Notes: generated by a model not told the origin, from the sequence alone. A stretch of 32,000 bases of DNA from Candidatus Iainarchaeum sp. (GCA_030649345.1 JAUSKK010000054.1:23228-55227), one strand, 5' to 3'; counted from the first letter of the stretch, positions 1 through 30,806 are shown. Numbers and translations: made by a program.

Positions 1-3000
1 TTTGCACTGTTGGATTGCCCATTTGTGCTGCAATAGCTGCGGCATCTCCGCTGGCTAATAATTCTCCAATAGCTGGTGTTACCTCTAAAGCAATTCCTTT
101 TTCTCCAATGCTTTTCGCTGCAGCTTCAGCTGCAGTTAATGCTTGAGTTCGAATTCCTTTTCTGGCATCGATTACTGCATCTTCTACTTTTTGTAATTCT
201 TCAGCATATCCTGCTCCAGGTGCTCGGTATCTTGGAGCTAAAGCAGCATTGCTTGCTCCAATTTCTTGATACAATGTTCTGAATCTTTGAGCCAATGCTG
301 GATCTGCTTTGGCATGCGTTAATGCAGCATCAAATTCTGTTTGCAATAATTGTGCTGTTACTATTGTTTTGGCTCTTTGCAATGCTGTAATTCGTTCTTG
401 AATACTGTGTTCTAAAATGGCATGCAATTCATTTCGAATTAAACCCCAATTTACAGGCCTGGGGATGGGTGCTGCTCCATACAATCTGTTTCCAATAGCT
501 TCAATTGAATTGTTAGTCATTAATTGGGTTACTTCAGCTACTTGTCCTGCGGTTAAAATTTTTCCACTGACTTGCAAGTATTCTCCAATAAATGCTCCAA
601 TTGTTACACTGGTTAATGCTTGTTCTAATCTTCCGCCAATTATGCCAGTGTCATTATTGTTGGCTGCATCAATGACTGCTTGTCTGGGATCAGGCGTAGG
701 CAAATTTTGGTAAGCTGTAATGTCTTGACTTAAATTATAAGGCGGTAAAACATAGTCTCCTAAATTTTTCAAAGTTTGAGAATAATCCACTCCCGGCATA
801 TTGAATAAAGCAGAGCCTGCTGTAATTCCGCAATCTCCGGCAACACTTAAAGCCAATCCGCCTAAACCTATTCCTCCACGGAATGAAATTGCATTGCAGG
901 CTATAGATACGGCTGCACAGGTTCCAGTGTATCCTGCTAAAGCCCATTTTTTGGCTGTTCGAACTTCTTGATAATATTCGGGTTGTCCAGCCAATGTTGC
1001 ACTCGTAGATCCAAAGAATACGTCAGCTTGTTTTCTTTTTTCTGGATCATTTAATCCTTCTTCTTGTCTTCTGGCAACTACTTCGAGTAAAATATCATCT
1101 ACACTTAATTCATCTGGGCCAGTCCAAGCTACATTCGGAATATAGTACGAGCCTACATCTAATTTGATTAATCTGGAAACCAAATCATACGGGCTTAGTC
1201 CACAGCTTTCTAATTTAATTAAAGCTTCATTGCTTTCTCTTGTTACTTTGTCTTTGGCTCTAGCTTTAACTTTCAATTGAGTGCTTAATGCATTTTTGAT
1301 TTGAGTTACATCTCCTACTGCACATAATTTTACTGCAAAAGAATAATTGGTCAAATTTTTTGGATCTTGTTTTAATTGAATTACTGTTCCTTCAATTTTA
1401 TTAGTTGGATCATCGGAGTATTCTTGAATAATTTCATCTTTTTTAATATCATTTAATCCAGGAATTCCTGTTTGTTCTTCGTTAGCTAATAAATAAACCG
1501 GTGTTTTTGCATTTGCTCGAATGACTTTTGTAATGTCTGCAAATCCTGCTGTGCTAATTTTTCCATTTTTGGCATCTTCTACTAATTGAGCCCAATTGGT
1601 TTGCAGAATAATTCGTTCTCCAATGGTGCTGGATACATTCATATCCAAACAAGTTTCTGTAGAATACAAAGCCAAAGCTGCTTTAGGATCAGGCTGGCTG
1701 GGATTAACTTGAGGTCTGGCTGAAGTTGGCAAGTCTCTTAGTACTAATTCTGTTTTGTCTGCATTCATGCATCCATTGCCTTCCAATCCTCCTTTGGCTA
1801 AACTATCTATTCCTTTTCCAATTTCTGTGCCTAATTGTTTTTGGAATTCTGGATTGCTGGAAACATAAATGTCATTAATAATGGCATCAATTTTGACTGG
1901 TTTTACATTGCCTTCAGCGTCTGTGACTTTTTCCATTTTTAATTTGATTACTCCAGAGCCTTCGACTGGCCCAACTGTTAAATTCAAGTAATTATTGTTT
2001 CCGCTTTTTCCTGTTCTGCCTTCATTTTTTCCAAACAAGCTTTTTGCTAAACTACTTTTTAATTCTTCAAATTGTTTGGCATCTGTATTCGCTGGAGTGT
2101 CTCCTGCAACTGTTCCCAAAAAAGTATTGCTTCTTGTATTCAAAGTTAAGTCTTCGTCTTTGGGTAAAAAATTCATTACATTTTGTATTTGTTCAGTACA
2201 TTCTGCAGTAATTTTTCGTTCATCTTGTAATTGGAAAGAAAATACCAATCCTTCGTCGCTGAATTTTCCGCCTATATTTTGTACAGCTCCATCCAAGCTA
2301 ATTCTGTATCTTCCACAGCCTGCTAAAATTCTAGGAACTCGAATTTGGTGGACTGAAAAACTGGAAGTAATTAATTCTGCACTTTCTTCTATGGTGTTGA
2401 CTGCATATCCTTTGATTTCTTTGAACTTGGTGCTGTCATCTAATATTTTTTTGACCAATTCACTGGTAACTACATCGTTTTGCAAGTATACTTCTAGGAA
2501 AGGAACACTAATTCCAAGAGAACTGAATGAACAAAATGTTTGGGTTGGATCACAACTTCCTGCATTGCGTGCATCATAGCTTATTTCTCTTAATCTTCTG
2601 CGTACATCTCCTGCCAATCTGTTTATTTTTCCCAAAACATGCTGAGTCATTTGTTTGGCGTCACAATAATGAGCTGAACAATCGGCTTCATTTTGGGTTG
2701 CAATATCCGGCAATTTAATGCTTACTGTTGTTTTTTCGTCTCCGCAAATTGGCATTTCAAAACTAGCTGTAGCTTTTCCTTCTTCGCTTAATTCTTTTCC
2801 CAATAAAATAGTAGCCAATAACTTGTTGGATTTACTGAATTGCTGGCTGCGTACTAAAAATCCTTTGACACTAATGGCTTCAGGTCTTTGTCCTGGACTA
2901 ACATAGTCTGATTTTTTTCCTAAAGTTAATTTGTATTCTTGGCTTTCTCCTGGATTCAATACAGTACTTGCGCCTTCAAGTTTGAGTTCATTTTGTCCGA

Positions 3001-6000
3001 ATAAAGTTCGGTCTAAAGTTAATTCTCTAACTTCTTCTGCACAATTGTTTTGGATTCTAATTTTTTTCTCCAATACTCCGGCTGAACTAACTTCACTTTG
3101 GAATCGTAAAGGTTCTACTTCAAATACTTTCAGGCATTCTCCGCCGGAAATATAAACTTGTAAATCTACTGCAGTTAATTCAATTCTTCGGCCATTCACT
3201 GAACCCCAAATAATAATTCGTGCAGGAATTGTTTTTCCTTCCAAGGCTTTGGTAGCTGCAGTGCTTAAGTAAATTGTTTTCGGAGGATTCAATTGTTGTC
3301 CTGGCATTAACATTCCTTGCCATAAACTTTTTTGGCTTCCGAAATAAGTAAAATTATTAGAGCCAAGCTGACTGAATGAATTGTTTGGATTTCCAAATTG
3401 GGTTTGTCCAAATCCTTGATTGTATCCTAAATTATATCCGCCAGTTGGACTGGAATTAAATCCTCCAAAGCCAGGCTGTTGGCTGAGTGCATACATTGGA
3501 TTTTGCAAAGGATTATTGGGCACACCGTATTGGGGTGTATCGTAGGGCAATACTTCTGGTCTTTGATACAATGTTTGATTGTCATAACTTGGCTGTGTTC
3601 CTTGTGTTGATTGATATCCTGTAGCAAACAAGGCATTGCCTCCAGATTCTACTGGCAAAATATCAATGTCTAAACTACCTGAAAATCCAGGTGCTAAAAC
3701 TGTAGTGAATTGCAATGCATTGATTGGGAATTCTCCCACGTTTTTAATATACAAAGGCAAGTATCCTGTGGCTCTTTCTTGTAAATTTCCAGTAGTTTGG
3801 TTTTCTCCTTTGGCTAAAAATACTTGTCCATTATTTCCTGCAATAGCCTGCAATCCAAATTGCGGTGGAACTACTCGGACAAATAAAGGAATACTGGCAG
3901 TCATTTGCGGAGAATTGAAAAATATTCTATACGGGTATTGTAAAATTCCTTGTCTTGGAATCCGGTTGGATAAACTTAAGCTAATGCTTTTTTCTTCTCC
4001 AATTTGTAAACTCAAAGAAGGAGCTGTAATGGTTAATTGCTGGTCTTGTTCCAATCCTTCAATTCGGGTTGAAAAACTTAAAGCTTGCGAGCATTCATTT
4101 CGTACAATAATGTCTACTCTTGCACTGGTATTATCTAAGCCTAACAAGAAAGCTTGAGCTTGCGGTGTATTAAACACCAAACAATCTTGGGGTAATTCTT
4201 TATTGTAATTTACTGTTACTCTTGTTCTGATTTCCACTGGGAAAACATCTTCAACTGTACCGCGAACAATTACTTCAGCTTCGCCGTGCAGTCTTTCTTC
4301 TGGATTGGTTCCTTTAAATCGTGCATTCAAATTTAGTGAACCTGTTTCATTTTCGCTTAAAGCGCTTTGAATTTGTGCTTCAAGTACTAAATTTTCCGGC
4401 CAAAATTCAGATTCTTGTACTTCTACAGTTAAAGATTTAATTTTGAACGAACTTTTGTTTTGAATATTGATTCGTTTGCTTTCGGTTTTTTTATTGGGCT
4501 GTAAATCAAACAAAGTAGTTTCCTGTAAAGTTAAAACATCTGTTTTTCCAATGAAAATAGATTGTTCGATTTTTCTATAATTGGGTGCAGTAACTTCTAC
4601 AATTAATACTCCAGCTGGCAGTCCTGCAGGAAAACCATATTCTCCGTTTCTTCCTTTTTTACCAGCATTATTTCCAATGACACTTCGTAAAGATTTTTTC
4701 TTTCCATCCAATATGCGTACAGTTGCATTGCTTACAAATTCACTGCTTTCTGAATCTTTGACTTGAATGGTAAACGGCTGTCCAATCACAATTTTTTCAG
4801 GAACAATTTTGAGGTCCATTTCTTTTTCAGAATATACTGTAAAAAAGTGTGTTTTTTCTGTTTCTGTTTCTCCAACTTTGACTTTGATTTGCAGGAAAGT
4901 ATTTTCTGCTTTTTTGGTTCTAAATGTTATGCGAATCTTTTTTTCTTCTCCTTGAGTTAATTGCAGTAAATCAATGCGGTCTTCTACATCCAAAGAATCT
5001 TCCTGTGAAAATACATTGCTGAGTTGTCCAATTTGTCTTCCATTCAATCCAATTTTGGGGTTTTGTTTATCTGTGCTTACCGTAATAATAGGCCGGGCAT
5101 TTTGGGTTGCTTTTAATGTTAATTCCAATGCATAAGTTCGATTCGTTAAAGGATTGAATTCATGTTCTAAAAATTTGTTGCCTTGATCGTCTACAAATAT
5201 GCTGGAAAAACAAACAGTGTTTACACATTCGGGTGTATCTTCAAATAATGGAATGGCTGCAAGTTTAGCTTCTGCATACAATGCACTTCTATGTTCATTC
5301 GAATTAGCTGTTTCCAAAACTGAGTCTAAAGGTTCTCTGAAAAATTCTCCATTGAGTGTACTCCAAGCTCTGTATCTGACTGTAATCTCATTTTCTTGCA
5401 ATGTTTCTCTGGCTCGAATTTTTAATCGTACAATTTCGACTGTATTGGGTTTGTCAAAATATAAATCCAGCCATTTATTGTATGAATTTGCAGTTCCTTT
5501 ATTGCTGCGGTCCAATCCTTCATTGCCGGGTTCAGGTGTAGCCATATAGGTTCTGCCATATGCAAAATTGCTGGCTGTGGAATCAAATCCTAAAATTCCT
5601 GAACTTTGAGAGTCTGCGAATTTTACAGAATCATCTCCGATTCTAAAATGAGCCCCTGAAGACAATTGAGTTGGACTAAATTCTAATTTGAATTTTAGCC
5701 AATAAAATTTTTCTTTCGAAATTCCTTCAACTATTTTTCCATGCTCGTCTTCAATTCCAATGAATTCAATTTTTGGGCTTAATCCTGCAGTGCTTTTGGA
5801 TAAAGTAATATCTGCAGTTTTTCTTCCATTCATTTGAATTTCTTGAGAAAAAGTATTTCCATCCAAAAAAGTTGCCTGCAGTATAAAGTTTTCTTTGCCC
5901 AATCCATCAAAACTAACTTGGCCTAAATTACTAGGCCCAGTGTATAAAACTGTTCCATCTTTGGCTGTGATAACCAAATTTCCGTCAATGATTTGTCCTG

Positions 6001-7564
6001 TTTCGTCTTTTAAATTTAAAGTAACCAAAGTCAAAGGCTTAATTAATTGAATTTTGATTTCATTTCTTTTTCCAGACTCAATACTTGTACTTCCTGTTCC
6101 TGCTTCAAAGTCTTTTCTGGCTTTGGCTTTAATTTGAGTATTCAATCGCACAGTAGCTTGCTGATATCCTGTTAAGTCTGTAACACTCGAAGGATAACCT
6201 GCAGGCCATTCTTTTCCATCTATAATTTCCAATAATTCAATGGTTGCATTATTGGCTGGTCTAAGCAATGAATCCAATACAAAAATATTCAATAAAGTAG
6301 AATTTCGGCTATGCACTGGTTCTAAGTTTAAATTTACAGTTGGCTGATCTACTGGTTTGATTGTTTTATGTTCTGGTAAATATCCTGCTTTAAATCCTGT
6401 GACAATATATTCTGTGTTTTGATCCAAGCCTCGGAATTCTATTGTGCCAGATAAATCAGTTGTTTTTTCTTCCAGTAAAGTATTTTCCAATGAATAAATT
6501 TTTACAATTCCATCACTTAAAGGAACACTGCCTTGATCCAATAAATGTACTTCAATACTTTCTCCGCCTTGTTCTAAAAATGCTTCTACAATTTCTTGTT
6601 CTTGTCTTAATGTTCTGGCTGAAATTTCTGTACTAATGTATCCTAATTTTTCGACTGTAATTCGTACACTGGTTCCAGTATCCAATAATTCAGTATAACT
6701 TCCATCTTCGTCTTGGACTTCAGAAATTAAATCATTGGTTAAACCGTCAAAAATTTTTATTTTAACTGCAGTTAATTGCTGCTGTGTTTGTTTGTCTTTG
6801 GCTACAATTAATAATTGGGTTTTTCCTTGAAATGAAATAATGCTGGGCTTTAATTCAAATAAAGTAATTTGTTCGCTGTCAAATACAAATGGATCACTGC
6901 TTTGTTCATAGCCATTGGCTCGGGTAATTAAAAATCCCTGCAAGCCTACTGGAATTCCAGTAAATGAAAATACATTATCTGTTCCTAGAATTCCGTCAAT
7001 TGTTTTTTCTGCAACTACAAACTGGGCTTGCACTTCACTGACTGGTAAACCGGATTCAGAGTCTACAAATTTAATTTTTCCATCTACATAGCTTAAAATT
7101 TTATTCAAAGTTAAACGCAATGAAAGTTGTTCTGATTCTAAAACAATTTCTTGTTCTGTGCTTTCATATCCTTCTTTGCTGGCCCGCACTAAAAGTGTAC
7201 TGCCAATTTTGAGTCCTTCCAAGGAAAGCGTTTGATTGGCGGAAACAATTTCTCGCTTGATTGAATTACCGGCTGCGTCCAAAATTTCTAAAGTGACTCC
7301 GCTAAGAGATTGATCAAAATTATCTTGTAAGCGTAAAGAAATTTCTGGATTAATGGATGTTCCCAAAGGAGACAAAGAAAATACAGCAACAAAAATTAAA
7401 ATAATTAAAGCCAAAGTTACAGGCAAACTCGGCAAGCCTTTGCTTTCCCAAAAATTATTGTATACATGAACTGGAATGCCGCGTGAATCCAAAGCTTCCA
7501 GCAAAGCATACCATTTGTCTTCAATGCCTGCATAAATTCTGCCTAAAATGTCAGAGATTCCCAT
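1..7564 (-). CDS. Giant N-terminally anchored surface protein. The N-terminal 2,521 codons are in the window; the C-terminus lies beyond the left edge.
   Basis: ATG at 7564-7562 gives MGISDILGRIYAGIEDKWYALLEALDSRGIPVHVYNNFWESKG, followed by the hydrophobic helix LPVTLALIILIFVAVFSL. I checked this minus frame (codons starting at positions = 2 mod 3) by hand and found no stops at 2-60, 722-1080, 2522-2580, 3362-3420, 5522-5580 and 7262-7564. The supplied track lists no ORF fragment at all in this frame over 7.5 kb. That fits a single ORF running off the window, since open-ended ORFs appear not to be listed. After the anchor come about six beta-rich modules of roughly 90 aa that resemble carboxypeptidase-regulatory-like / Ig-like folds (e.g. 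GVTLEILDAAGNSIKREIVSANQTLSLEGLKIGSTLLVRASKEGYES). Downstream of these are unrecognised domains, a Q/N/G/Y-rich tract and a Cys/Gly-rich segment. Confidence 0.8.
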   Translation of the reverse strand, partial: MGISDILGRIYAGIEDKWYALLEALDSRGIPVHVYNNFWESKGLPSLPVTLALIILIFVAVFSLSPLGTSINPEISLRLQDNFDQSLSGVTLEILDAAGNSIKREIVSANQTLSLEGLKIGSTLLVRASKEGYESTEQEIVLESEQLSLRLTLNKILSYVDGKIKFVDSESGLPVSEVQAQFVVAEKTIDGILGTDNVFSFTGIPVGLQGFLITRANGYEQSSDPFVFDSEQITLFELKPSIISFQGKTQLLIVAKDKQTQQQLTAVKIKIFDGLTNDLISEVQDEDGSYTELLDTGTSVRITVEKLGYISTEISARTLRQEQEIVEAFLEQGGESIEVHLLDQGSVPLSDGIVKIYSLENTLLEEKTTDLSGTIEFRGLDQNTEYIVTGFKAGYLPEHKTIKPVDQPTVNLNLEPVHSRNSTLLNIFVLDSLLRPANNATIELLEIIDGKEWPAGYPSSVTDLTGYQQATVRLNTQIKAKARKDFEAGTGSTSIESGKRNEIKIQLIKPLTLVTLNLKDETGQIIDGNLVITAKDGTVLYTGPSNLGQVSFDGLGKENFILQATFLDGNTFSQEIQMNGRKTADITLSKSTAGLSPKIEFIGIEDEHGKIVEGISKEKFYWLKFKLEFSPTQLSSGAHFRIGDDSVKFADSQSSGILGFDSTASNFAYGRTYMATPEPGNEGLDRSNKGTANSYNKWLDLYFDKPNTVEIVRLKIRARETLQENEITVRYRAWSTLNGEFFREPLDSVLETANSNEHRSALYAEAKLAAIPLFEDTPECVNTVCFSSIFVDDQGNKFLEHEFNPLTNRTYALELTLKATQNARPIITVSTDKQNPKIGLNGRQIGQLSNVFSQEDSLDVEDRIDLLQLTQGEEKKIRITFRTKKAENTFLQIKVKVGETETEKTHFFTVYSEKEMDLKIVPEKIVIGQPFTIQVKDSESSEFVSNATVRILDGKKKSLRSVIGNNAGKKGRNGEYGFPAGLPAGVLIVEVTAPNYRKIEQSIFIGKTDVLTLQETTLFDLQPNKKTESKRINIQNKSSFKIKSLTVEVQESEFWPENLVLEAQIQSALSENETGSLNLNARFKGTNPEERLHGEAEVIVRGTVEDVFPVEIRTRVTVNYNKELPQDCLVFNTPQAQAFLLGLDNTSARVDIIVRNECSQALSFSTRIEGLEQDQQLTITAPSLSLQIGEEKSISLSLSNRIPRQGILQYPYRIFFNSPQMTASIPLFVRVVPPQFGLQAIAGNNGQVFLAKGENQTTGNLQERATGYLPLYIKNVGEFPINALQFTTVLAPGFSGSLDIDILPVESGGNALFATGYQSTQGTQPSYDNQTLYQRPEVLPYDTPQYGVPNNPLQNPMYALSQQPGFGGFNSSPTGGYNLGYNQGFGQTQFGNPNNSFSQLGSNNFTYFGSQKSLWQGMLMPGQQLNPPKTIYLSTAATKALEGKTIPARIIIWGSVNGRRIELTAVDLQVYISGGECLKVFEVEPLRFQSEVSSAGVLEKKIRIQNNCAEEVRELTLDRTLFGQNELKLEGASTVLNPGESQEYKLTLGKKSDYVSPGQRPEAISVKGFLVRSQQFSKSNKLLATILLGKELSEEGKATASFEMPICGDEKTTVSIKLPDIATQNEADCSAHYCDAKQMTQHVLGKINRLAGDVRRRLREISYDARNAGSCDPTQTFCSFSSLGISVPFLEVYLQNDVVTSELVKKILDDSTKFKEIKGYAVNTIEESAELITSSFSVHQIRVPRILAGCGRYRISLDGAVQNIGGKFSDEGLVFSFQLQDERKITAECTEQIQNVMNFLPKDEDLTLNTRSNTFLGTVAGDTPANTDAKQFEELKSSLAKSLFGKNEGRTGKSGNNNYLNLTVGPVEGSGVIKLKMEKVTDAEGNVKPVKIDAIINDIYVSSNPEFQKQLGTEIGKGIDSLAKGGLEGNGCMNADKTELVLRDLPTSARPQVNPSQPDPKAALALYSTETCLDMNVSSTIGERIILQTNWAQLVEDAKNGKISTAGFADITKVIRANAKTPVYLLANEEQTGIPGLNDIKKDEIIQEYSDDPTNKIEGTVIQLKQDPKNLTNYSFAVKLCAVGDVTQIKNALSTQLKVKARAKDKVTRESNEALIKLESCGLSPYDLVSRLIKLDVGSYYIPNVAWTGPDELSVDDILLEVVARRQEEGLNDPEKRKQADVFFGSTSATLAGQPEYYQEVRTAKKWALAGYTGTCAAVSIACNAISFRGGIGLGGLALSVAGDCGITAGSALFNMPGVDYSQTLKNLGDYVLPPYNLSQDITAYQNLPTPDPRQAVIDAANNNDTGIIGGRLEQALTSVTIGAFIGEYLQVSGKILTAGQVAEVTQLMTNNSIEAIGNRLYGAAPIPRPVNWGLIRNELHAILEHSIQERITALQRAKTIVTAQLLQTEFDAALTHAKADPALAQRFRTLYQEIGASNAALAPRYRAPGAGYAEELQKVEDAVIDARKGIRTQALTAAEAAAKSIGEKGIALEVTPAIGELLASGDAAAIAAQMGNPTVQ

Positions 7565-7760
7565 ACAGTTCACATTTCACTAAGTATAATTAATTAAACC
7601 TAATTCCCTTAATTAATCTAATGTTTAGCAGAATGTTGAATATTTGCTAATTCAATATACTGAAATCAAGCATATTCTTTTATTTGTTCAACATTCTGTT
7701 CTTATAATATATAAATGTAAATAATAAATAAACCAGTAGGGTTATTTTTGGGTTGATTCA

Positions 7761-8357
7761 ATGGTTTCTGCAAGGCCAAGTGCTCGTTTTCGTGTTTTAG
7801 GCTCTAAACTTTTGGCTGAACTTCGCAGGCCTAGAACAGGCAAACATAGTATACTTCAAAAAAGAAGCAGACTTAAAGCAGCTTTTGAAAAACGTTTAGG
7901 CCAATTTCAGCAAGTTTTCAAGTTTTATAAATTGGACCAAATTTCTGTTTCTGCAAAATTATTAAGATCTCCGAAAGGCTTGCAAAAATTTCGCGGAATT
8001 TTGGTTGAAATTTCCAGAGTTGAAAAAGAATATGGCAGTGAATCTAGAAAAATTAATTTATTGAGAACTGAATTGACTGAAATGGCGCAAGCAACCAGAG
8101 CACGCAGAGGTCCGCATTTGACTGCCTTGGAAAATTTGTATACTTTGCAAGCTGTGAATTTTTCTTTGGAACGCGAATGGCAAACGCGTGCATTGCATAA
8201 TCGTTTAAGAATTCTTTCCAATAATCCAGAAGCGCATTTTGATGTTTTGAAAAATGACTTGATTTATTTTCAAAACATTCAGGCATCTATGGCTGCCAAT
8301 GTAAAAGAAATGGAACGCATTCAAGGCAGTTTAAGAAAAAGTTATTTTGTTCAATAA
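7761..8357 (+). CDS. Hypothetical basic, probably helical or coiled-coil protein (198 aa)
   Basis: ORF in the track, Arg/Lys-rich (MVSARPSARFRVLGSKLLAELRRPRTGKH...). An AT-rich intergenic region with TATA-like runs (about 7700-7735) precedes it and is shared divergently with the giant gene. It ends 1 nt before the stop of the convergent 2,184-aa gene. No family recognised. Confidence 0.45.
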   Translation: MVSARPSARFRVLGSKLLAELRRPRTGKHSILQKRSRLKAAFEKRLGQFQQVFKFYKLDQISVSAKLLRSPKGLQKFRGILVEISRVEKEYGSESRKINLLRTELTEMAQATRARRGPHLTALENLYTLQAVNFSLEREWQTRALHNRLRILSNNPEAHFDVLKNDLIYFQNIQASMAANVKEMERIQGSLRKSYFVQ

Positions 8358-8358
8358 T

Positions 8359-11300
8359 TTATGCAAAATCCGTTACTTGAATTCGTACAGCTGTAGTGAA
8401 TGGATTAATTTGAATGACTAATTGTCTGTCCTGAATTTTTATTTGTGCTTGATTTCCTGAAGTAAATTGCAAGCTAACATTTTTGTAAAGTGTTTTGGCA
8501 AAATCTCTGGGCAAAATAATTTCCAAATAATTTACATTGGGTACATTTTTAGTTTCAAATACTTCCGTGATTCGTACTTGAACTGGTACAATTCCCTGCT
8601 GGTCAAATTCTTGTACTTTTTGTTTATTCCAATAAATTACTTTAACTCGATCCCATTCAATTTGGAATACTGTGAAGTCATTGCTTTTGCTTCCAGCCAA
8701 TAATCCGCCAATCATTCCTGCGCCTTGAAATTCAAATACAACTTCTTTTCCTGCTTGTGTTCCAATTCCAGTTATTTTACTAACTGCTGCTTGGGCTTGA
8801 TTGTCTGCCAATACTTTGCTGTGAAAACTAAAATCTGCTGCATGCAATACTTGAGGCGCAGTTCCTTCTTCTGGGAATGAACTTCCAAGATTGGCGGCTT
8901 GTCGTAAATCCATTTCTACAATATTTAAATTTTCCATTACTTTGGTATACCGTTTTAAGTGCAAAAGTTCTAAAGTTTCTCCGCTGCCTAAAGCTTCTCT
9001 TAATTCTGCTCTTCGTTCTGTACTAAATCCTTTAATAATTTCCAATAAATTTTCTCCAGCTGCATTACGCGTTTCCACTTCATCAATGACAGAACCAATT
9101 CTGCAATTGGGGCTGGCCTGCAATCCTCTTTGACATAAAGCATTTAGTTTTTGAACTATTTCTTCTAAAGGCCGAGCCATAGCTGCTTGGGTTTTTTGCA
9201 AAGCAGAATCTGTTCCAGTGATAACCAAAAATTGTTGTTCAACTTCACTGTTTAAAGCTTTAGCTGCAGCCCAGCTGGCTTCAATGCCGGGAGTACTGGC
9301 ATGCAAGGCTGGCTGAATATTGTTGACTTCCATCATTCGGTCGGTCAATTTTTTGACTGCTTGAATTAAAGCATAATCTTGATCACTTAACATTCCTTGC
9401 CTGTGCAGTACTTCTGCAGTGTCTGCAATTCTAGCCAGTCTTAAATTTTGCAATCGTAAAACATCTGCTCCAGCTACTTCAATTCCTTCTCCTGTAACCG
9501 GTACAATGGTTGGAATAAATTTTCCACTCGAATGCCGTACAAATCGATAGGTTGCTGCATTGGGTGCCAATTCTTCGAATACAATTCTTTTTCCTAAATC
9601 TGCTTGCAATGCAATTATGGGTTCGCCAAGTTTGTTTTTTAAAATTCCCACAACACTACAGGCAGCTCCAGCTGGAGTAATATTAATTACATTGGGTCCA
9701 GCACATTGTGTTTTGTTTCCAATTCCTACAACTTCAATGTACAAGTCTCTGGAAACTTCTTCAGGCGTTATCTGAATTACTGCAGACTCAATACTGTCTG
9801 CTTCAATGCCTCGAACCAATTCTCCGTCTGCATATATTTTATACATAGCCCATTCACTTTCTTTTCCAGCCCATTTCCCTAAACGCAGTTTGAATGGAAC
9901 AGATGTACTTATTTTTTTCCAAAATACTTGCCTGGTTCTTTTTACAGTTTCTGTTTTATATGTTAAAACTTCCATTGTGTTTTGAATTCCTTTCAAAAAA
10001 TTCATGCTGGCTTTTGCAATTATTGTTTTTCCAGTCTGCAAACTTTCTGCATTCAATACTTTTCCCAATAATACTTCAGTTACATCTACAAATGCAGTGC
10101 TTCCTTTTTGAATTCCTTTTCGTGCAAGCACAAATAATTCTTTTCCGAGTGTTCCAATTTTTGTTTTCAATAAAGCTTTTCCAGCTGTGCCCATTAAACG
10201 CGCAGCTGGCATAATAACTATTTCGCCGGCAATAATTCCAATTACATTCCAGCGCAAGTCTAAAAATGCTCTGGCGAATTCTGTTTCTGTATTGTGTTTT
10301 TCAATTGCTTGAACTAAATTTCCAGCCAATCCTTTGTTTCTATAAAATTCATTCAATTCACTGGTTTGTATTCCCAATGTTGCAGGATTGTATTCTGTTA
10401 AAAATTCTCCTGATTCTTCAATTCCTAAATCTGTACTTAATTTCAGCATATTTTTTGCTTGAGCAAATGCCAGCATTCCTTCTTTTTGTTTGTCTAAATT
10501 TTGGTTTTGATTCCATTGAGTTTGAACCTGAATCCATTTTTGCAAAATCGGATTATTTTCAGCCAATTCTTCCGGTAAATTTCGCTCCGGGAAAGGGCAA
10601 ACTGTAGTAATACACTTGTCATTAACTGCTGCAGATTGCACAAAATATGTATTTCCAGCTAATTTAACTTGAATCTCCAAATTAGCAATTTGATGGGTTA
10701 AAATGCTTTCCGTGGCTGTATTTGGAATCCATTGATTTGAATTGCTTAATTCTGTTTTGGACACAATTATAACTGGACTGGATTCAAACACAATACTTCC
10801 AGTGCTTTGTCCATTATCTGTTTGTTCAACTGCATTATAGAATTCAATTCCTGTGTCTGTGAATTTAATTTTTCCCAATAAAACTGTACTAGTATAGGTT
10901 CCTGCAGATTCACTCATTCCTTCAGCTGTCTCCAGGCCAATAGTCTGCGTGGAATGACTGGTTACAAATAATTCTTCGCCTGTATTAAAATTTCTTGCAA
11001 TATTTCTAGGTTTTTCAATGTTTGAAAAAGTTTGCGTTACTCCATCCAAATATTTTACCAAGCCGCCCAAGACATATGCACCGGAAGGAATTTTGCTTTC
11101 ATCTCTAGCTTGCTTTAGTCTAGCTGTTTTAATTTCAGTTTGAGCCGAACTTAAATTCAAATTTCGTTCATTCATTTGTCCAGCTAAACTTGTTTGAATT
11201 AATTTTAGTTTTATTTCCATTTGAACTAATTCTTTTCTTCGCAAGCCTTGAATGCTTTGCAAGTTTTCATTAATTCCAGTCAATTCTTCAATGGCATAAA

Positions 11301-14300
11301 ACCAATCGTATACTTTTCTATACTGTGTAAATGTTTCTGTTTGTTCTTGATCTAATTGAGCCAATCGAATTTTAGTAAATGTTAATTTTTCGCTGACTTC
11401 TTTTACTGCATTGTCTAAAGCCAAAGCTTGCAAATGTTGCCTGGCTTTTTCTCTGGCTTGCTTTTCCATTTCTGTTTGTTCAGAATCTTCTGCAGTTAAT
11501 CCAATAGTTATCAAATCTAAATTCAATTCCAATCGCACAGCATCTTGCTGGAGCTGAATATTTTGAGGATCCCGGTCCAATAAGTCTTGCGTAATTCTTA
11601 ATTCTTGTAACACAGAAACCCATTCTTTAACTTCCGGTAAAACTTCTTTGGTTTGTTTTAATTTTTCCAATACTGGATCAAATTTTTGAATCAATTTAGC
11701 ATAGCCTTGTTCGCTTTCATTTAATGCATTATTTAATTCAGTTTTAGCCTTGTTTAAAAATTCTGCAATTTTTGTTTTATTAACCCCAGTACCGGAACTT
11801 AAGTGATTCCAAAATTCTGAATTTTCCGAAAACTCTAAAAAACCCAAAGCATCTGGAAACAATTGATTCCAAGCAATGGCCTGCATTTGTTCTAAACCAT
11901 AATAAAATTCATTCAAATGTTTGACTTCTTGATCCACAGAATCCAAATCTTGTAAAAGTTTCAAAACCCAAATTTGTTGATTTTGTGTTGGATTATTTTC
12001 TAAATTTTTCATTTCTAAATCCAAAGCCTTTTGTCCTAAAATTTGTGCTTTTAGTAATTTTGTTTTTGCAAAACAATTATTGTAATAGAATTCTGCCAAT
12101 TTGGTTCCTTGCTTTAAATCAGTCCATTTCAAGCCTAAAAAGGTCTTTCCTGTAAATTCTGGAAATGCACATTCTGGTTTATGCAGTAAGTCTTGCTGGC
12201 TAATCATTTCCCAGACAAAGGCTTCTTTCGGCAATTCTTGCGTACGTACATTTTCTTGTTGAAAGTAATCAATGTATTCTGTGAATGCAGAACTAGAACT
12301 AATGGTGCTGAGTTCAGGTAATCCGGATGTCTTGTTGGCTTGCAAGAATAAACTTAAATCAATTCTAGCTCGTTCATTTATTTTTTGATATTCTTCGAAT
12401 GCCTGTTGGCTTTCTTGCGCATAACAATTAGCAACAATGTCTGTAGTCCATCCGTTTTCTTTTTGTTTTCTTAAACATTCATTGTTTCCTAAATTGATTT
12501 CAATTTCTTGTTTTCCTCCAAACAATAAACCATAATTTAAAATAATTTTTCCGGTTTTGGTTTCATTGAATCCAATTTTTTCTCTTCCTGTTGTTCTGGT
12601 AAATATTCGTTTTACAATCAAAGAATTTTCTTCTGGAATCCAGGTAATCCAATACAATCCTTTTCCATTTTGAGTTAAAACAATAAACGGCTGGCTTTGT
12701 GTTAATTGAATATTTTGAATACTTTGGTAACTGGTTCCATTTTTGGAGAACAAAGATTCATTGTCTAATTCAATTTTGCGCGCAGTGCTTTCCATTTCAT
12801 TTGATCGTGTGGGTTCACTCATTAGTTCTGGTGTTATATTTACATTTTTAATTTCAACAATATTTCCTTTTTTTTCCAGTACAAAATCCAATGCTCCAAA
12901 ATCTAAAGTATCGGTGACTGCATCATTGTCTTCTAAAGTGTATCTTTGCAATTCCACAATTCTGGAAACTTGTACATTGTTTATTCCAGCTTCAACTGTT
13001 GTATTGGTTCCAAGCAAATCTCCTGTACTGATTCGATCTTGTTCTGGTAAATAGTTTGTTCCATCTAACCAAACTTTTAATCTAAATGGTTCAATTTTTC
13101 CATTGACAGTTACATGCATTCCTTGAGCAATTCCTTGTTTGCTTTCCAGTGAAGGTGCTGTAGATTGCCATTCATTTCCTAGGTTTGGCAAAGTATTTGG
13201 GTTGGTGAATAAAAATTCTTGTTCAATTTCAGGTGCTTGCTCCGAGAAATAAATTGGCAAAGGCTGAGGCAAAGCATAGTTTGTTTGCAGTTGTTTTCTT
13301 GGAGTTAAGTCTTCGGCTTTAAATTCAATTTCTAAATACGGATTTTCAGTTTCCACTTGAGCTCGTTCTTCTTCGAAAGTTGCTTTAATTGTTCCAGAAT
13401 TGCCTGCTTTCCATTGTTTGTATTCTTGAAGTATTTCTTGTCTACAAGCTGCTTGGGTGCCTCCTTGAGGGCATGTATTGAAATCTGTACAATAAGGGCA
13501 TAATTTAAAAGCCAAACAATCAGCAATAATTCCTTCAGGAACTGTTTTTTCCCAATATCTGTCAGGTTCCGGTGTTCCACATTCAGTGAATACTTCTTTT
13601 TTGTACATGGAAGTTTCCCAGTAAGCTTCTTCGGTTGCTTTTCTTGTGCAGCTCATTGCTTGACCTGCATCTCTTAATCCATCCTGAGTTGCATTTCGGT
13701 CACATTCATCTGCTTTTTCTTCAATTTTTTTTCCCCATTCTCCAAAATCAGTATTTCCGTTTCGAATTTCTGTAACAGCTTCATTAATGGTTGTCATTAC
13801 TTGTGCAAATTCTGCTTCAGTATATCTATCAGATTCAATGGGTATTACTTTTTGTCCCACCTGCGCAGCAATACTGTCTGCAATATATCCGCCGAAATTA
13901 TTATTTGCTGAATTGCAGGACAAATTCAAGTTTTCAATATTTTGAACCATTTGCTCTAATTCAGCTCTATGTCTTACAGCCATTTCCAGATTGCTTAAAG
14001 GATAAATAAAAAGTGAGTGCAGGCAATTCTGTCCCCCGGCTAATTTAATTTCAACTGTTCCAAATGGATCATCCGGTGAATCCCCAGTAAAAATTACCGG
14101 ATCATCTAAAACAACAGTTGATTCTCCAGCTCCCGTAATTTGTACATCACTTGCTTTTTGCGCCAAACTTTTAGGAACTAAAATTAATAATCCAGTTCCA
14201 GGCACGTGTGTTTCTGGATTAAATGTAATGGTTTCAGTATGCTTTACTCCATCATCTGTAACTTGTACAATTCCATAATTGTTTTCATCTCCAATTGAAT

Positions 14301-14913
14301 ATTCAAATTCATACGGTTGAAACACCATGGCCGTTGTTGGAGTTTGTTCCAATAAAATTTTGGTTCCAAATTCTGCGCTTAATTTTGCATTCAGTCTTTC
14401 TTCGCTTTGATTTACTTTTGTACAATCCCATGCAATGCTTTCAAATTCTGCAAATTCTTCTACAATTTCCTGCAATTCATTTTGAGTTAATTCATCAAAA
14501 ACTGTTTTCGGCAAAAGCACAGCCATAGAGCAACCATTTCGATCTGCGCTTGAATATTCAATTCTGTAATCTAAATTTCCTTGATCGGTTTCAGACTTTA
14601 CAACAATGGGTTTGGTTAACAAAACGCTTTGTTTTTGGTTTCCCTGAAAACTTAAAGCACTTACTCTTGAAACCAACGAACTGGGAACAAAATTCAAGAA
14701 GACTAATTGTTCTGCGTTTTCTTGAATTGTGTATTTTTCAATATGCTGGTTTTGGTTTACTGAAATTGTTTTTTGAACTTCAATTCCAGCAAAATTCAAA
14801 GAATAGGTTTTCTCACTTAAAGTAGATTCAGGAACTATTGGTTTAGAATAAAATACAAACCAGCCGGCCAATACCAAAACTAAAATAATCCCAATTGCGA
14901 GTTTATTATTCAT
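8359..14913 (-). CDS. Giant secreted or membrane-anchored protein (2,184 aa), function unknown
   Basis: Complete ORF in the track. N-terminal signal/anchor MNNKLAIGIILVLVLAGWFVFYS. Cys-rich module around nt 13416-13701 (CTRKATEE...CLAFKLCPYCTDFNTCPQGGTQAAC). Long helical, coiled-coil-like Q/E/K/L-rich region around nt 10700-12300. Moderately hydrophobic segment NVIGIIAGEIVIMPAA at 10208-10260. The C-terminus has no hydrophobic sorting signal. No catalytic motif recognised. Confidence 0.85.
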   Translation of the reverse strand: MNNKLAIGIILVLVLAGWFVFYSKPIVPESTLSEKTYSLNFAGIEVQKTISVNQNQHIEKYTIQENAEQLVFLNFVPSSLVSRVSALSFQGNQKQSVLLTKPIVVKSETDQGNLDYRIEYSSADRNGCSMAVLLPKTVFDELTQNELQEIVEEFAEFESIAWDCTKVNQSEERLNAKLSAEFGTKILLEQTPTTAMVFQPYEFEYSIGDENNYGIVQVTDDGVKHTETITFNPETHVPGTGLLILVPKSLAQKASDVQITGAGESTVVLDDPVIFTGDSPDDPFGTVEIKLAGGQNCLHSLFIYPLSNLEMAVRHRAELEQMVQNIENLNLSCNSANNNFGGYIADSIAAQVGQKVIPIESDRYTEAEFAQVMTTINEAVTEIRNGNTDFGEWGKKIEEKADECDRNATQDGLRDAGQAMSCTRKATEEAYWETSMYKKEVFTECGTPEPDRYWEKTVPEGIIADCLAFKLCPYCTDFNTCPQGGTQAACRQEILQEYKQWKAGNSGTIKATFEEERAQVETENPYLEIEFKAEDLTPRKQLQTNYALPQPLPIYFSEQAPEIEQEFLFTNPNTLPNLGNEWQSTAPSLESKQGIAQGMHVTVNGKIEPFRLKVWLDGTNYLPEQDRISTGDLLGTNTTVEAGINNVQVSRIVELQRYTLEDNDAVTDTLDFGALDFVLEKKGNIVEIKNVNITPELMSEPTRSNEMESTARKIELDNESLFSKNGTSYQSIQNIQLTQSQPFIVLTQNGKGLYWITWIPEENSLIVKRIFTRTTGREKIGFNETKTGKIILNYGLLFGGKQEIEINLGNNECLRKQKENGWTTDIVANCYAQESQQAFEEYQKINERARIDLSLFLQANKTSGLPELSTISSSSAFTEYIDYFQQENVRTQELPKEAFVWEMISQQDLLHKPECAFPEFTGKTFLGLKWTDLKQGTKLAEFYYNNCFAKTKLLKAQILGQKALDLEMKNLENNPTQNQQIWVLKLLQDLDSVDQEVKHLNEFYYGLEQMQAIAWNQLFPDALGFLEFSENSEFWNHLSSGTGVNKTKIAEFLNKAKTELNNALNESEQGYAKLIQKFDPVLEKLKQTKEVLPEVKEWVSVLQELRITQDLLDRDPQNIQLQQDAVRLELNLDLITIGLTAEDSEQTEMEKQAREKARQHLQALALDNAVKEVSEKLTFTKIRLAQLDQEQTETFTQYRKVYDWFYAIEELTGINENLQSIQGLRRKELVQMEIKLKLIQTSLAGQMNERNLNLSSAQTEIKTARLKQARDESKIPSGAYVLGGLVKYLDGVTQTFSNIEKPRNIARNFNTGEELFVTSHSTQTIGLETAEGMSESAGTYTSTVLLGKIKFTDTGIEFYNAVEQTDNGQSTGSIVFESSPVIIVSKTELSNSNQWIPNTATESILTHQIANLEIQVKLAGNTYFVQSAAVNDKCITTVCPFPERNLPEELAENNPILQKWIQVQTQWNQNQNLDKQKEGMLAFAQAKNMLKLSTDLGIEESGEFLTEYNPATLGIQTSELNEFYRNKGLAGNLVQAIEKHNTETEFARAFLDLRWNVIGIIAGEIVIMPAARLMGTAGKALLKTKIGTLGKELFVLARKGIQKGSTAFVDVTEVLLGKVLNAESLQTGKTIIAKASMNFLKGIQNTMEVLTYKTETVKRTRQVFWKKISTSVPFKLRLGKWAGKESEWAMYKIYADGELVRGIEADSIESAVIQITPEEVSRDLYIEVVGIGNKTQCAGPNVINITPAGAACSVVGILKNKLGEPIIALQADLGKRIVFEELAPNAATYRFVRHSSGKFIPTIVPVTGEGIEVAGADVLRLQNLRLARIADTAEVLHRQGMLSDQDYALIQAVKKLTDRMMEVNNIQPALHASTPGIEASWAAAKALNSEVEQQFLVITGTDSALQKTQAAMARPLEEIVQKLNALCQRGLQASPNCRIGSVIDEVETRNAAGENLLEIIKGFSTERRAELREALGSGETLELLHLKRYTKVMENLNIVEMDLRQAANLGSSFPEEGTAPQVLHAADFSFHSKVLADNQAQAAVSKITGIGTQAGKEVVFEFQGAGMIGGLLAGSKSNDFTVFQIEWDRVKVIYWNKQKVQEFDQQGIVPVQVRITEVFETKNVPNVNYLEIILPRDFAKTLYKNVSLQFTSGNQAQIKIQDRQLVIQINPFTTAVRIQVTDFA

Positions 14914-14995
14914 TTATATAATATAGGACTTTTTGCTTAAAAATAGTTACTTTTGCAGTAATTCTTTGTTAAACCTTTTTAAACCTAAATGAATT

Positions 14996-15319
14996 ATGTC
15001 TGAAATTTCCTGCGAAGAATTGAATGAAAAACTCAAATCTAAAAAAAAACCTTTTTTGTTGGACGTGCGTACTTCCGAAGAATATGCTAAAGCTCACTTG
15101 GAAGATTCTAAATTAATTCCAATTCAAGAATTTGCAGAAAGAATAAACGAATTGCCTGCAGACAAAACAACAGAAATTGTGGTTTATTGCCATTACGGCG
15201 GACGTTCGACTCGAGTCATGCAGTTTATGAAAACTCAGGGATTCACCAATGTAAAATCTTTAGAAGGCGGTTTAAGCTTTTGGGAATTACGCAAACTTCC
15301 GATGAAATGCAAACTTTAA
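14996..15319 (+). CDS. Single-domain rhodanese-like sulfurtransferase (107 aa)
   Basis: Typical rhodanese layout: LLDVRTSEEYAKAHLEDSKLIP, active-site loop CHYGGRS (C-x2-G-x-R-S/T), then LEGGLSFW. A TATA-like tttttaaacc lies about 20-30 nt upstream of the ATG. Confidence 0.85.
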   Translation: MSEISCEELNEKLKSKKKPFLLDVRTSEEYAKAHLEDSKLIPIQEFAERINELPADKTTEIVVYCHYGGRSTRVMQFMKTQGFTNVKSLEGGLSFWELRKLPMKCKL

Positions 15320-16999: not shown

Positions 17000-17383
17000 T
17001 TATTGTGTTTCTGCAGTCAGTATGCCATCTACTTTTTGATCGATTCTGCAATCATATGAAGATAAATCCAAAGGCGCTGGGGCATTTGGATTTTCTTGGG
17101 TTAAAATTTGTTCGCCTACTTTGGTTCCCTGAGAATTATAATAATAACTTTCTGCGTCATATCCGGAGCTTCCAGTTACTACAAATATGAGTTCATTTTC
17201 TTTTTCGCACACAGTAATTGCTGCTCCGGCTCCTTGGGCGTGTTTTTCAATCAATGTTTGGAAGTGCTCAAAAACAATGGCTGGACGTATTCTTTCTTCC
17301 GAATTGGCGGCGTTGGGCTGAGTGCATCCTGCTAAAATTAAGAATACAATTAAACTTGATAAAATTGCAAATTTGAAATTCAT
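17000..17383 (-). CDS. Small lipobox lipoprotein (127 aa)
   Basis: Signal peptide with lipobox MNFKFAILSSLIVFLILAGC. The C-terminal domain is paralogous to the one in the next gene (QGAGAAITVCEKENELIFVVTGSSG...YYYNSQGTKVGE...PAPLDLSSYDC). Confidence 0.7.
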   Translation of the reverse strand: MNFKFAILSSLIVFLILAGCTQPNAANSEERIRPAIVFEHFQTLIEKHAQGAGAAITVCEKENELIFVVTGSSGYDAESYYYNSQGTKVGEQILTQENPNAPAPLDLSSYDCRIDQKVDGILTAETQ

Positions 17384-17413
17384 AAAAAACTAACCCATTT
17401 CTTATTTATAAAT

Positions 17414-18073
17414 TTATTCGGTCTTAGCTACGATTTGGCATTCATCCATTTCCAAAGAAACTGGCGGCCCTGGATCTCTGGGATCAATAACGTCGCCCCA
17501 GTTATATTTTCCTATAAAATTTCCATTGGTGTCAAAATAATTATTTTGTCCATTGTCTCCAGCATTTCCTTTCACCAAATAGACTATTTTATTGTCTTTA
17601 AAGCAAGCCAATAATTCTGCTCCTTGAATGTTTTCATAAAGTGGTTTGATTTCTTCAAACTTTTGCTTAACTAGTTCAGGTACTTGTTCTAATTCAATAG
17701 TTGGAATAATAGCACAATGGTTTTCAATGCAGTCAATTCTTCCAATTCCACAATCTAAAGGGCCTTCACAGCGTTCAGAACAAGCAAATTCAAAAGGCCC
17801 ATCTTCTAGAAAAGCTTTATTGATTGCTTTATCTGGATGACAGGTTTTATTCGGAACACAATCTGTTTTAGTTTCGCAAAAATTTTGAACTGGCTCTACT
17901 ATAGGCTCATTATTGTCTGGAATTGTACTAGTACAATCCGCATAGCAGGATTCAATGCTTTCTCCGAATTCACAATACGTATTTCCGCATTTTGGACTGC
18001 CTTCTGGATTAATACAGCCTGCTAAAAATAAGACCAATAATACTAAACTGATTCCGAAAAATTTGAATTTCAT
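17414..18073 (-). CDS. Cys-rich lipobox lipoprotein (219 aa), paralogue of the 17000-17383 product
   Basis: MKFKFFGISLVLLVLFLAGC lipobox. N-terminal Cys-rich module (about 16 Cys). The C-terminal domain aligns with the neighbouring gene (QGAELLACFKDNKIVYLVKGNAG...NYFDTNGNFIGK...PPVSLEMDEC). Confidence 0.7.
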   Translation of the reverse strand: MKFKFFGISLVLLVLFLAGCINPEGSPKCGNTYCEFGESIESCYADCTSTIPDNNEPIVEPVQNFCETKTDCVPNKTCHPDKAINKAFLEDGPFEFACSERCEGPLDCGIGRIDCIENHCAIIPTIELEQVPELVKQKFEEIKPLYENIQGAELLACFKDNKIVYLVKGNAGDNGQNNYFDTNGNFIGKYNWGDVIDPRDPGPPVSLEMDECQIVAKTE

Positions 18074-20567: not shown

Positions 20568-20584
20568 TTGTGTAGGCTTCTTGC

Positions 20585-30802: not shown

Positions 30803-30806
30803 ACTT

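Follow-up and report, generated by a model that had tools for sequence, protein, structure and literature searches.

What do two giant genes contribute to the surface of a small archaeal cell, and do they form a single system? The question is raised by 32,000 nucleotides (nt) of Candidatus Iainarchaeum sp. (GCA_030649345.1 JAUSKK010000054.1:23228-55227; GC content 33-38%), a stretch referred to here as the window. A preliminary description, made from the sequence alone, reported two giant genes on the minus strand, and open reading frame (ORF) calls confirm both: gene A, of at least 2,521 amino acids (aa) and open at the window edge, and gene B, complete with 2,184 aa (Table 1). The two genes and their neighbours had also been read as a dedicated cell-surface or cell-contact island. 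For A this reading is borne out by its orthologs, which follow a short archaeosortase gene in ~17 genomes and are divergent from the same pilus operon in at least 13. Gene A is no singleton beyond description, for it belongs to a conserved family whose architecture can be defined. Nor do A and B make a pair, B being an accessory gene whose place, between the archaeosortase gene and A, is a variable slot. On balance we lean towards the view that the region is part of a cell-contact island of an archaeon of the Iainarchaeia (Diapherotrites, DPANN), in which A reaches and breaches bacterial walls with the help of a pilus, and in which B is accessory.

Gene A, a conserved giant beside pilus genes

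Both giant genes are genuine native genes, because the GC content of their codon positions falls from the first to the third (GC1/GC2/GC3 = 0.47/0.39/0.23 in A and 0.47/0.35/0.23 in B) and their codon usage is close to that of the neighbouring genes. Relative synonymous codon usage correlates at r = 0.98 between A and B, and the correlation with pilus and housekeeping genes nearby is 0.86-0.89. The possibility that they are pseudogenes, raised in the preliminary description, found no support: the frames are uninterrupted, codon usage is native, and the frame of B also appears in an independently assembled Logan contig (run SRR13727527). The open frame of A spans 2-7576 on the minus strand (2,525 codons), and the first residues of all orthologs line up with its first Met, at 7564. 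The missing C-terminal part, outside the window, is estimated at ~0-550 aa. The Logan contig covers A only as far as residue 262, and an exact-DNA scan of JGI metagenomes gave no match to the continuation of the gene.

Relatives of A were collected from one genome per GTDB species, a set that does not include the source genome, scanned by tblastn; 44 loci were returned, and 47 related loci entered the comparisons with B. About 20 of the 44 carry collinear A orthologs of 2,534-3,074 aa, with 25-31% identity over residues 1 to ~2,250. A word-index protein search with A found three relatives (2,733-3,065 aa, 23-30% identity). The closest ortholog, with 34% identity and 2,949 aa, comes from a Hainich groundwater archaeon (locus L048). 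The genomes concerned are labelled Iainarchaeum, Diapherotrites, Micrarchaeota or simply 'archaeon', and include the single-cell genome of Ca. Iainarchaeum andersonii (L017). Gene A itself shows the collinear ~2,250-aa body of the family, its invariant core Cys and its DCG motif, at residue 2244.

The surroundings of these orthologs recur as well. In one direction lie the T2SSE ATPase, the T2SSF platform gene and five or six pilin-like genes; in the other lie the short archaeosortase, the A ortholog, a ~550-aa protein and one to three further giants. The archaeosortase gene is directly upstream of the A ortholog in ~17 loci, and the ATPase and platform genes, 46-66% identical to those of the window, flank A orthologs in at least 13. 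In at least 20 loci the ~550-aa protein is directly downstream. It has no Pfam match and starts 'M.(K/R)(K/R)GF(T/N)LFTALVsFvLI', a class III (prepilin-type) signal, because of which it is read as a large pilin-like protein. With this protein and the ATPase, platform and pilin genes surrounding the A orthologs, the giants are embedded in a pilus gene set.

The proteins of the family start with a leader and a membrane anchor. Transmembrane (TM) segments were called in 19-residue windows on the Hessa scale (dG <= 4 kcal/mol), with Kyte-Doolittle (KD) hydropathy alongside, and topology was judged by hydrophobicity scales alone. As a control on the threshold, the window's own multi-pass T2SSF and archaeosortase proteins yield many segments. 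Residues 46-64 are the only segment of A with dG <= 4. The preliminary description had placed a single anchor at each N-terminus; one strong hydrophobic segment is indeed present in each protein, but in A a conserved leader of 45 aa comes first, so that the segment is not at the very N-terminus. For both proteins the scales are consistent with one N-terminal anchor and a bulk outside the cell. Further TM helices were considered at A 2208-2254, at B 1557-1575 and in a G-rich segment near the ortholog C-termini and were rejected, as none passes the Hessa threshold that all control TM helices pass. Charge asymmetry flanks all three of these secondary segments.

The leader, which Pfam and NCBIfam do not recognise, is common to 55 giants (0.6-3 kaa) in the fetched loci, among them Micrarchaeota proteins and the cluster's second and third giants. 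Judged by the N-termini of giant ORFs in L002-L047, its bearers come from several paralogous families. The consensus is 'mgLkdfY.gIEDKYY.flD.Ld.KGIPVYk.vDpIE.kGIPSFP', with the TM helix immediately after. The 55 sequences were picked by two regular expressions requiring the central E and the P of IPSFP, so that the invariance of those two residues is circular; the invariant Tyr before IEDKYY is at a position that the selection did not impose. Moreover, G43, P45 and P48 are invariant in 12 full-length A orthologs, which were chosen independently of the regular expressions. Neither the leader nor the fixed sortase-giant-pilin-giant arrangement is described in the literature compared here, in which no search was aimed at either. 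As a tag, the leader could help to find and classify giant DPANN proteins, dozens of which carry it unrecognised by any domain library.

Behind the anchor, Pfam recognises CarboxypepD_reg (PF13620; 59.8 bits, residues 75-148) and, weakly, a SpaA/prealbumin-like stretch (residues 336-398). The only PDB matches of the A-family profile are beta-sandwich chains, of transglutaminase-family, tail-fibre and fibronectin-binding proteins. Within this array the ortholog conservation profile shows a strongly conserved block at residues ~600-800. The low-complexity linker that follows is largely an insertion specific to gene A, with a gap fraction of 0.70 among 12 orthologs at residues 1301-1400; it is missing from ~70% of orthologs and shows FG/GY-like repeats ('GFGGFNSSPTGGYNLGYNQGFGQTQFGNPNN'). 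The core then holds 13 invariant Cys (C1477, C1508, C1607, C1629, C1634, C1671, C1678, C1750, C1789, C1932, C1972, C2081 and C2121). Self-BLAST found no internal repeats in A or B.

Ortholog homology stops at the DCG segment, whose closing motif in the family is 'DC(G/I/V)', and all tblastn matches end at residues 2153-2344. The tails beyond it, 350-1,165 aa long in the orthologs, form a mosaic of pieces common to some orthologs only. In most, a hydrophobic segment of small residues is found together with a short beta domain and a 'DC' motif, and many then have a terminal module. Three such C-termini carry peptidoglycan hydrolases: SLT in L012 (44.5 bits, Pfam cut-off 21.3), glucosaminidase in L018 (37.7 bits, cut-off 30.2), and both amidase_3 (41.5 bits) and glucosaminidase (43.3 bits) in L005. 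Eight other orthologs have in common a divergent module of ~150 aa whose motif, 'v.EaLLvAvliv.PE..GC', resembles the region before the SLT catalytic Glu. The statement that no catalytic motif is present thus holds for the parts in the window, as Pfam, NCBIfam, PHROGs and PDB sequence searches found no catalytic domain in A residues 1-2521 or in B, but it does not hold for the A family. Peptidoglycan hydrolases in particular (SLT/GH23, glucosaminidase/GH73, amidase_3) gave no Pfam or NCBIfam match in these parts of A and B.

Gene B and its variable slot

Genes A and B had been described as head-to-tail neighbours. They do read in the same direction, but they are not adjacent, with a plus-strand ORF of 198 aa (o198) in between. 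With this ORF between them and, upstream of B, a rhodanese gene on the plus strand, A and B are separate transcription units and not one operon. For o198 itself no homolog was found in the related loci. An 18-nt inverted repeat, 89% complementary, has one arm abutting the start codon of B and the other upstream of the 198-aa ORF (7700-7717, TCTTATAATATATAAATG; 14911-14928, CATTTATATAATATAGGA); it could reflect a common AT-rich promoter or start context, or have arisen by chance.

The two giants are as dissimilar as first described, with BLAST at E > 2 and an hhalign probability of 0.3% for the A-family profile against B. In the 47 loci B gave no BLAST or phmmer match with the A family, and the IEDKYY/GIP leader is absent at its N-terminus. 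Synteny with pilus loci, which the preliminary description had proposed to test for the pair, is found for the A family but not for B, to which none of the 47 related loci gave a match. In most genomes nothing lies between the sortase gene and A. Where the slot is filled, the contents are unrelated to B: an 831-aa protein (L006), a 664-aa lipoprotein-like protein (L013) and a 1,528-aa protein with a sortase signal (L014). B is best seen as an accessory surface protein that diverges rapidly and fills a variable position in the island.

In NCBI, B is entered as a hypothetical protein from the metagenome-assembled genome of a 'Candidatus Diapherotrites archaeon'. The same Pfam, NCBIfam, PHROGs and PDB sequence searches found no known domain in it, a word-index search of 5.8 billion proteins returned only B itself, and no close relative was present in JGI metagenomes or IMG/VR. 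HMMER (phmmer) with residues 1-1200 against 1.84 billion cluster representatives gave 24 matches, 22 of which cover only the N-terminal TM and a ~170-aa domain (residues ~5-195; E 9.5e-15 to 5e-4). B is therefore nearly an orphan, but its N-terminal domain, duplicated in B, defines a loose family of large archaeal proteins. The duplication is visible only via external homologs. By hhalign the N-terminus matches B-type proteins with a probability of 97.7% over 192 columns, and nothing beyond residue ~340 is in common. The presumed role of residues ~830-1290, to judge from their composition, is that of an alpha-helical stalk.

The B-type anchor domain heads archaeal proteins of 953-2,233 aa (P0018, P0021, P0023, P0025, P0013 and others). 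One of these, P0013 (L052:10001-13471; 1,156 aa), combines it with a gingipain-like Peptidase_C25 domain, and the anchor domain therefore appears to serve diverse large surface proteins. In L048 the archaeosortase ortholog and the closest A ortholog have the gene of a B-type protein (1,731 aa) two genes upstream. B illustrates how fast accessory surface giants may diverge, only the anchor-proximal domain still being recognisable. A mobile-element origin of B was considered and rejected: there are no tRNA genes, Rfam matches, convincing flanking repeats, IMG/VR relatives or PHROG matches, and its codon usage is native.

A proposed contact island and the alternatives

The bulk of A and B is presumably extracellular, given the beta-sandwich domains, the conserved Cys, and wall hydrolases that would be pointless inside an archaeon. 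For A, ~15 invariant Cys and the single strong N-terminal TM also point that way. On the reading that we lean towards, A would be a type II membrane protein and the conserved core giant of the island, held in the archaeal membrane by a cytoplasmic 45-aa leader and one TM helix. The beta-sandwich domains (~1,300 aa), the flexible linker and the disulfide-rich core would form its long extracellular reach, and the hydrophobic 'DCG' segment would mark the switch to an exchangeable C-terminal effector region. The co-encoded type-IV-like pilus would bring or hold a neighbouring bacterial cell, A would bind that cell, and the distal module of A would open its peptidoglycan locally. B would add or modulate adhesion, most plausibly as an accessory adhesin or specificity factor.

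That pilus and giants act together is suggested by their synteny. By established enzymology, SLT, GH73 and amidase_3 enzymes act on peptidoglycan containing N-acetylmuramic acid (MurNAc), which archaea lack; amidase_3 cuts the MurNAc-L-Ala bond, and pseudomurein is without that bond. Since the substrate of the three enzymes is not found in archaea, we infer that the target is bacterial murein. A itself may be enzymatically active. A conserved pilus-linked giant with relatives that end in three different murein-cleaving enzymes gives tangible evidence, at the genome level, that some of these archaea interact with bacteria. The family also offers experimental handles: the tail domains lend themselves to activity assays and the leader to processing assays, and the cluster could serve as a screening marker.

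Several results weigh against this reading. A significant hydrolase domain is present in only 3 of 16 complete orthologs, and those of L010, L023, L026 and L036 apparently end without a terminal module. The visible tail of A (267 aa) matches no ortholog tail. The divergent module of the eight other orthologs has MltC as its sole PDB profile match, at a non-significant E of 0.67, and hhalign gives it 1.7% against the SLT tail and 0.1% against the glucosaminidase tail. AlphaFold2 models were unusable both for the core and for a tail, with a predicted local distance difference test (pLDDT) score of 39.9 for A residues 1590-2300 (3-sequence alignment) and of 35.7 for the C-terminal 245 aa of P0001 (2 sequences). 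The genomic context of four B-type proteins places three of them among housekeeping genes, and the link of B to the island may be incidental. Lastly, the conserved sortase adjacency is left unexplained, as neither B (complete C-terminus without a TM, KD 0.93) nor the complete A orthologs have a C-terminal sorting signal.

A and B would fit a known kind of protein, the giant contact proteins of episymbiotic or predatory small cells. The large lytic murein transglycosylases of Woesearchaeota and other DPANN, read as tools of predation on bacteria (Castelle 2015 AR20; Vigneron et al. 2022, PMC9723730), resemble the A family in being very large, secreted or anchored, of GH23/SLT type and from small-genome archaea. 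Unlike them, the A family has a conserved ~2,250-aa body, a specific leader and fixed sortase/pilus synteny; its hydrolase is one of several exchangeable tails (SLT, GH73-type glucosaminidase, amidase_3 and others), and the window copy has no hydrolase in the available part. The giant genes of Omnitrophota ('Archaeovorins') are preceded by type II secretion (T2SS) or type IV pilus (T4P)-like systems, and some carry SLT domains (bioRxiv 10.1101/2023.11.21.568195). Like the A family, their products are surface proteins encoded beside such machinery with many small pilin-like genes, and prey binding and wall degradation have been proposed for them. They differ in being bacterial, 10-40 times longer, and equipped with glycosyltransferases and C39/S8 peptidases; there is no sequence relationship, and the likeness is at most convergent.

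Polymorphic toxins such as CdiA, Rhs and MafB likewise join a long conserved N-terminal body to a variable C-terminal module through a short demarcation motif. The A family differs from these too, having no TPS/FHA, Rhs or PT-domain similarity and an N-terminal TM anchor instead of an outer-membrane transporter, and its identified tails are wall hydrolases rather than intracellular toxins. No polymorphic-toxin trafficking or pre-toxin Pfam domain was found and no immunity gene identified; the gene after A orthologs is the conserved pilin-like one, not a variable immunity gene.

A bolder proposal would be a dedicated export and mounting pathway, in which the short archaeosortase, the pilus machinery or both recognise the leader and helix and place giants of 2,500-3,000 aa, with exchangeable murein-hydrolase tips, on or beside the filament as a contact-dependent wall-breaching device. 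No such pathway is described in the libraries and literature searched here. We regard it as unlikely at present. If it were true, these DPANN archaea would have bacterial, not archaeal, partners or prey; no cultivated DPANN archaeon is known to live on anything but another archaeon. No host or partner of Iainarchaeia came up in the literature compared here.

The giants might instead be mounted on the pilus themselves. The N-terminus of A would then be a long class III signal, cut by a prepilin peptidase after the invariant Gly of '(K/R)G|(I/L/V)PS(L/F)P', and the helix would dock at the filament tip together with the ~550-aa protein. The invariant G43 would suit this, as would position -2 (K, R, N or H in all A orthologs, mostly K/R), the hydrophobic helix of ~20 residues that follows, and the place of the giant genes inside the pilus gene set beside a large protein whose signal, 'KG|FTLFTAL', is of textbook form. 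Bacteria have well-established modular and large minor pilins, such as S. sanguinis PilB (PMC8179133), and large proteins in archaeal T4P loci (PilY-like, DUF2341) have been proposed as tip adhesins (PMC4858521); A resembles them in size, in its expected adhesiveness, in its place in a T4P locus and in the Gly before its N-terminal hydrophobic helix. Yet its conserved leader of ~43 aa stands against the short basic ones of known pilins and the 4-12 aa leaders of the window's own pilins, searches detected neither a DUF2341 nor a pilin domain, N, V or S stands at position -1 in 23 of the 55 leader-bearing paralogous giants, and Pro at +2 is atypical. Moreover, no prepilin peptidase gene lies within the window, and B is without such a site. 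Pilins are not known to reach 2,500-3,000 aa. This mounting on the filament appears rather improbable.

Rather unlikely, too, is a structural or general adhesive role, in which the giants would form an S-layer-like coat or act as biofilm or substrate adhesins without attacking anything, the muralytic tails being lineage-specific add-ons. A does consist mostly of generic beta-sandwich domains, hydrolases occur in a minority of its orthologs, and large strain-specific surface proteins are common in DPANN, where they are usually read as adhesins; those of the micrarchaeon Mia14 are linked to T4P loci (PMC5498576). The pilus synteny and the exchangeable modular tail would be unexpected of a coat protein, and the S-layer protein of Micrarchaeota is a different, 101-kDa PF05123 protein (bioRxiv 10.1101/2021.04.28.441871). 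Neither A nor B has an S-layer domain, PF05123 or other. Homology to a characterised family, named in the preliminary description as grounds for doubting the novelty of the pair, was absent in this respect, with no S-layer hit at E <= 1 in Pfam or NCBIfam for A or B. An ordinary S-layer or SPEARE-like protein was accordingly rejected, no domain of these libraries supporting it in either giant.

The archaeosortase suggests another alternative, in which the giants are its substrates or partners. The N-terminal '(I/L/V)PS(F/L)P' with its TM would serve as a sorting signal, and the giants would be processed or tethered by the enzyme, or have sortase-anchored proteins linked to them. Directly upstream of A orthologs in ~17 loci, the archaeosortase keeps its catalytic Cys, Arg and His in 17 orthologs ('LCtG..E', 'FN..R', 'H...FR'). 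The pentapeptide [ILV]PS[FLIM]P occurs 48 times in 402,589 ORF residues; 40 of these occurrences are in the giants' leader, directly before the TM, and one is in the C-terminal signal of a sortase neighbour in L048 ('NLPSLPEE-TM-RIRINKNKN'; 1,651 aa, L048:2976-7931). Similar C-terminal signals with a TM and basic tail end other neighbours, namely 'NPSILP-TM-RRELKNEKQKD' (L048:15196-15813), 'LPTEP...' in L014 (L014:4026-8612) and 'VPSIPDN...' in L042 (L042:3-3821). A recognition motif of '(L/V)PS(L/I)P' type may thus exist for this sortase, a lead and not a result.

Archaeosortase substrates are expected to carry a C-terminal tripartite signal of motif, TM helix and basic tail. Like the substrates with PGF-CTERM, VPXXXP-CTERM and PEF-CTERM signals, the giants have a Pro motif right before a TM and a dedicated archaeosortase-family gene adjacent. 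Unlike them, they carry the element at the N-terminus, without a basic tail and in the opposite membrane orientation, and the canonical C-terminal TM and tail are missing from B and from all complete A orthologs. The motif would also lie on the cytoplasmic side of the N-in anchor, whereas the Cys and His of the sortase are predicted at the outer face, and cleavage at the leader motif would release the ectodomain, not anchor it. The motif link itself is based on one or two C-terminal examples. A sortase-substrate role is a quite doubtful explanation. The tightly conserved pairing of the giants with a short archaeosortase for which no local substrate is obvious is relevant to target choice by archaeal sortases. 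A full-text literature search found no paper naming both Iainarchaeota and archaeosortase.

That B is a decaying, non-functional ORF or an annotation artefact, as the near absence of homologs outside the first 340 aa and a single Cys-rich module could suggest, is hardly credible for 2,184 uninterrupted codons in 35% GC DNA with a strong codon-position GC bias, a codon usage matching that of A along the whole gene, and an independent assembly of the same ORF.

Neighbouring genes and coordinates

The neighbours named in the preliminary description are present as claimed: the archaeosortase-family gene, two LAGC-lipobox proteins, an ATPase of FlaI/PilB type, a T2SSF platform gene and six pilin-like genes (Table 1).

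Table 1. Features of gene A, gene B and their neighbourhood, in window coordinates (aa, amino acids; TM, transmembrane)
Feature	Coordinates	Strand	Basis or remark
Gene A, partial coding sequence, >= 2,521 aa	2-7564	-	C-terminus beyond window edge; conserved Iainarchaeia giant family
A residues 1-45, conserved leader 'MG..D.L..IY.GIEDKWY...D.LD..GIPV.VY...F.E.KG(I/L)PS'	7430-7564	-	two tandem GIP motifs
A residues 46-64, single strong TM anchor SLPVTLALIILIFVAVFSL	7373-7429	-	KD 2.65, Hessa dG -1.5
A residues ~65-1300, beta-sandwich array (CarboxypepD_reg / prealbumin-like)	3665-7372	-	PF13620 and SpaA matches; family profile against PDB
A residues ~1300-1420, Q/N/G/Y/P-rich low-complexity linker	3305-3667	-	composition; largely insertion specific to gene A
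A residues 1420-2150, Cys-rich conserved core	1115-3307	-	ortholog alignment
A residues 2208-2254, G/A/C-rich moderately hydrophobic segment, invariant D2244-C2245 ('DCG')	803-943	-	conserved in orthologs
A residues 2255-2521, start of variable Ala-rich helical C-terminal region	2-802	-	composition
198-aa basic ORF (o198)	7761-8357	+	between A and B; codon bias like coding gene; also called in Logan contig
Gene B, complete 2,184-aa coding sequence with stop codon, acidic	8359-14913	-	ORF call
B residues 5-23, single strong TM / signal anchor LAIGIILVLVLAGWFVFYS	14845-14901	-	KD 2.46, Hessa dG -2.1
B residues 19-183, anchor-proximal domain copy 1	14365-14859	-	common to other large archaeal proteins
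B residues 195-338, second domain copy	13900-14331	-	P0019 match (iE 6e-13); L050 match at 198-291
B residues 385-521, module with 8 Cys	13351-13761	-	202-aa metagenomic protein P0005, 54% identical, E 2.5e-32
B residues ~830-1290, helix-former-rich (49-63% A/E/L/K/Q/R/M), Pro/Gly-poor	11044-12426	-	composition only
Rhodanese-domain gene	14996-15319	+	PF00581 70.6 bits; divergent from B
Archaeosortase/exosortase-family protein, 181 aa	15287-15832	-	TIGR04178 32.5 bits, cut-off 23
Two LAGC-lipobox proteins (127 and 219 aa)	17000-18073	-	lipobox
Type-IV-pilus-type assembly ATPase (767 aa) and T2SSF platform protein (768 aa)	18264-22891	+	orthologs 60-66% and 46-53% identical
Six pilin-like genes	23001-23498, 24174-24710, 26906-27481, 27494-28147, 28114-28824, 28964-29851	+	class III signals 'RGQA', 'KAQM', 'RAQS'

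The window version of the island is expanded. Between the ATPase and sortase genes it holds mutY and the two LAGC-lipobox genes, for whose products no homologs were found in the related loci, and the rhodanese gene, B and o198 are interposed between the sortase gene and A. The rhodanese (+) and archaeosortase (-) genes overlap convergently at their 3' ends by 33 nt (15287-15319). No named subfamily model matched the archaeosortase at its own cut-off. The pilus ATPase has an N-terminal extension of ~300 aa before its FlaI/TadA-like core (ortholog sizes 685-761 aa), and the platform protein shows a dozen or more hydrophobic windows in the Hessa scan (ortholog sizes 755-857 aa).

The order of the pilin-like genes matches that of the orthologous genes in L002, L007, L012, L016 and L017. 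In the window their operon is interrupted by genes for a Fic/DOC protein of 120 aa (23573-23935), a BRO-N-domain protein of 294 aa (24932-25816) and a small two-TM protein (26320-26841). Because the pilin operon is contiguous in orthologous loci, these three look like insertions of mobile or defence-type genes.

In the related clusters, the ~550-aa protein is Cys-rich, has a bacterial-looking class III signal and lies between the first and second giant genes (e.g. L002:18437-20188). The second giants (L010:11557-20697, L002:20394-27569) are a family of their own, dense in CarboxypepD_reg, Big_1 and MG domains. Many of them end '...C(F/V)....(L/F).WN(P/K)...', and one ends, by eye, in a CAP/SCP-type-like sequence.

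At 29852-31850 the window encodes an acidic 316-aa protein with a C-terminal zinc ribbon beside a 347-aa membrane protein with a long charged tail. The C-terminal ~75 residues of the zinc-ribbon protein are 41% identical to an ORF of L048 (L048:180-2265), a locus that also carries B-type and A-type giants. In the matching position L048 has a 369-aa membrane ORF of a build similar to that of the 347-aa protein, with no similarity between the two by BLAST.

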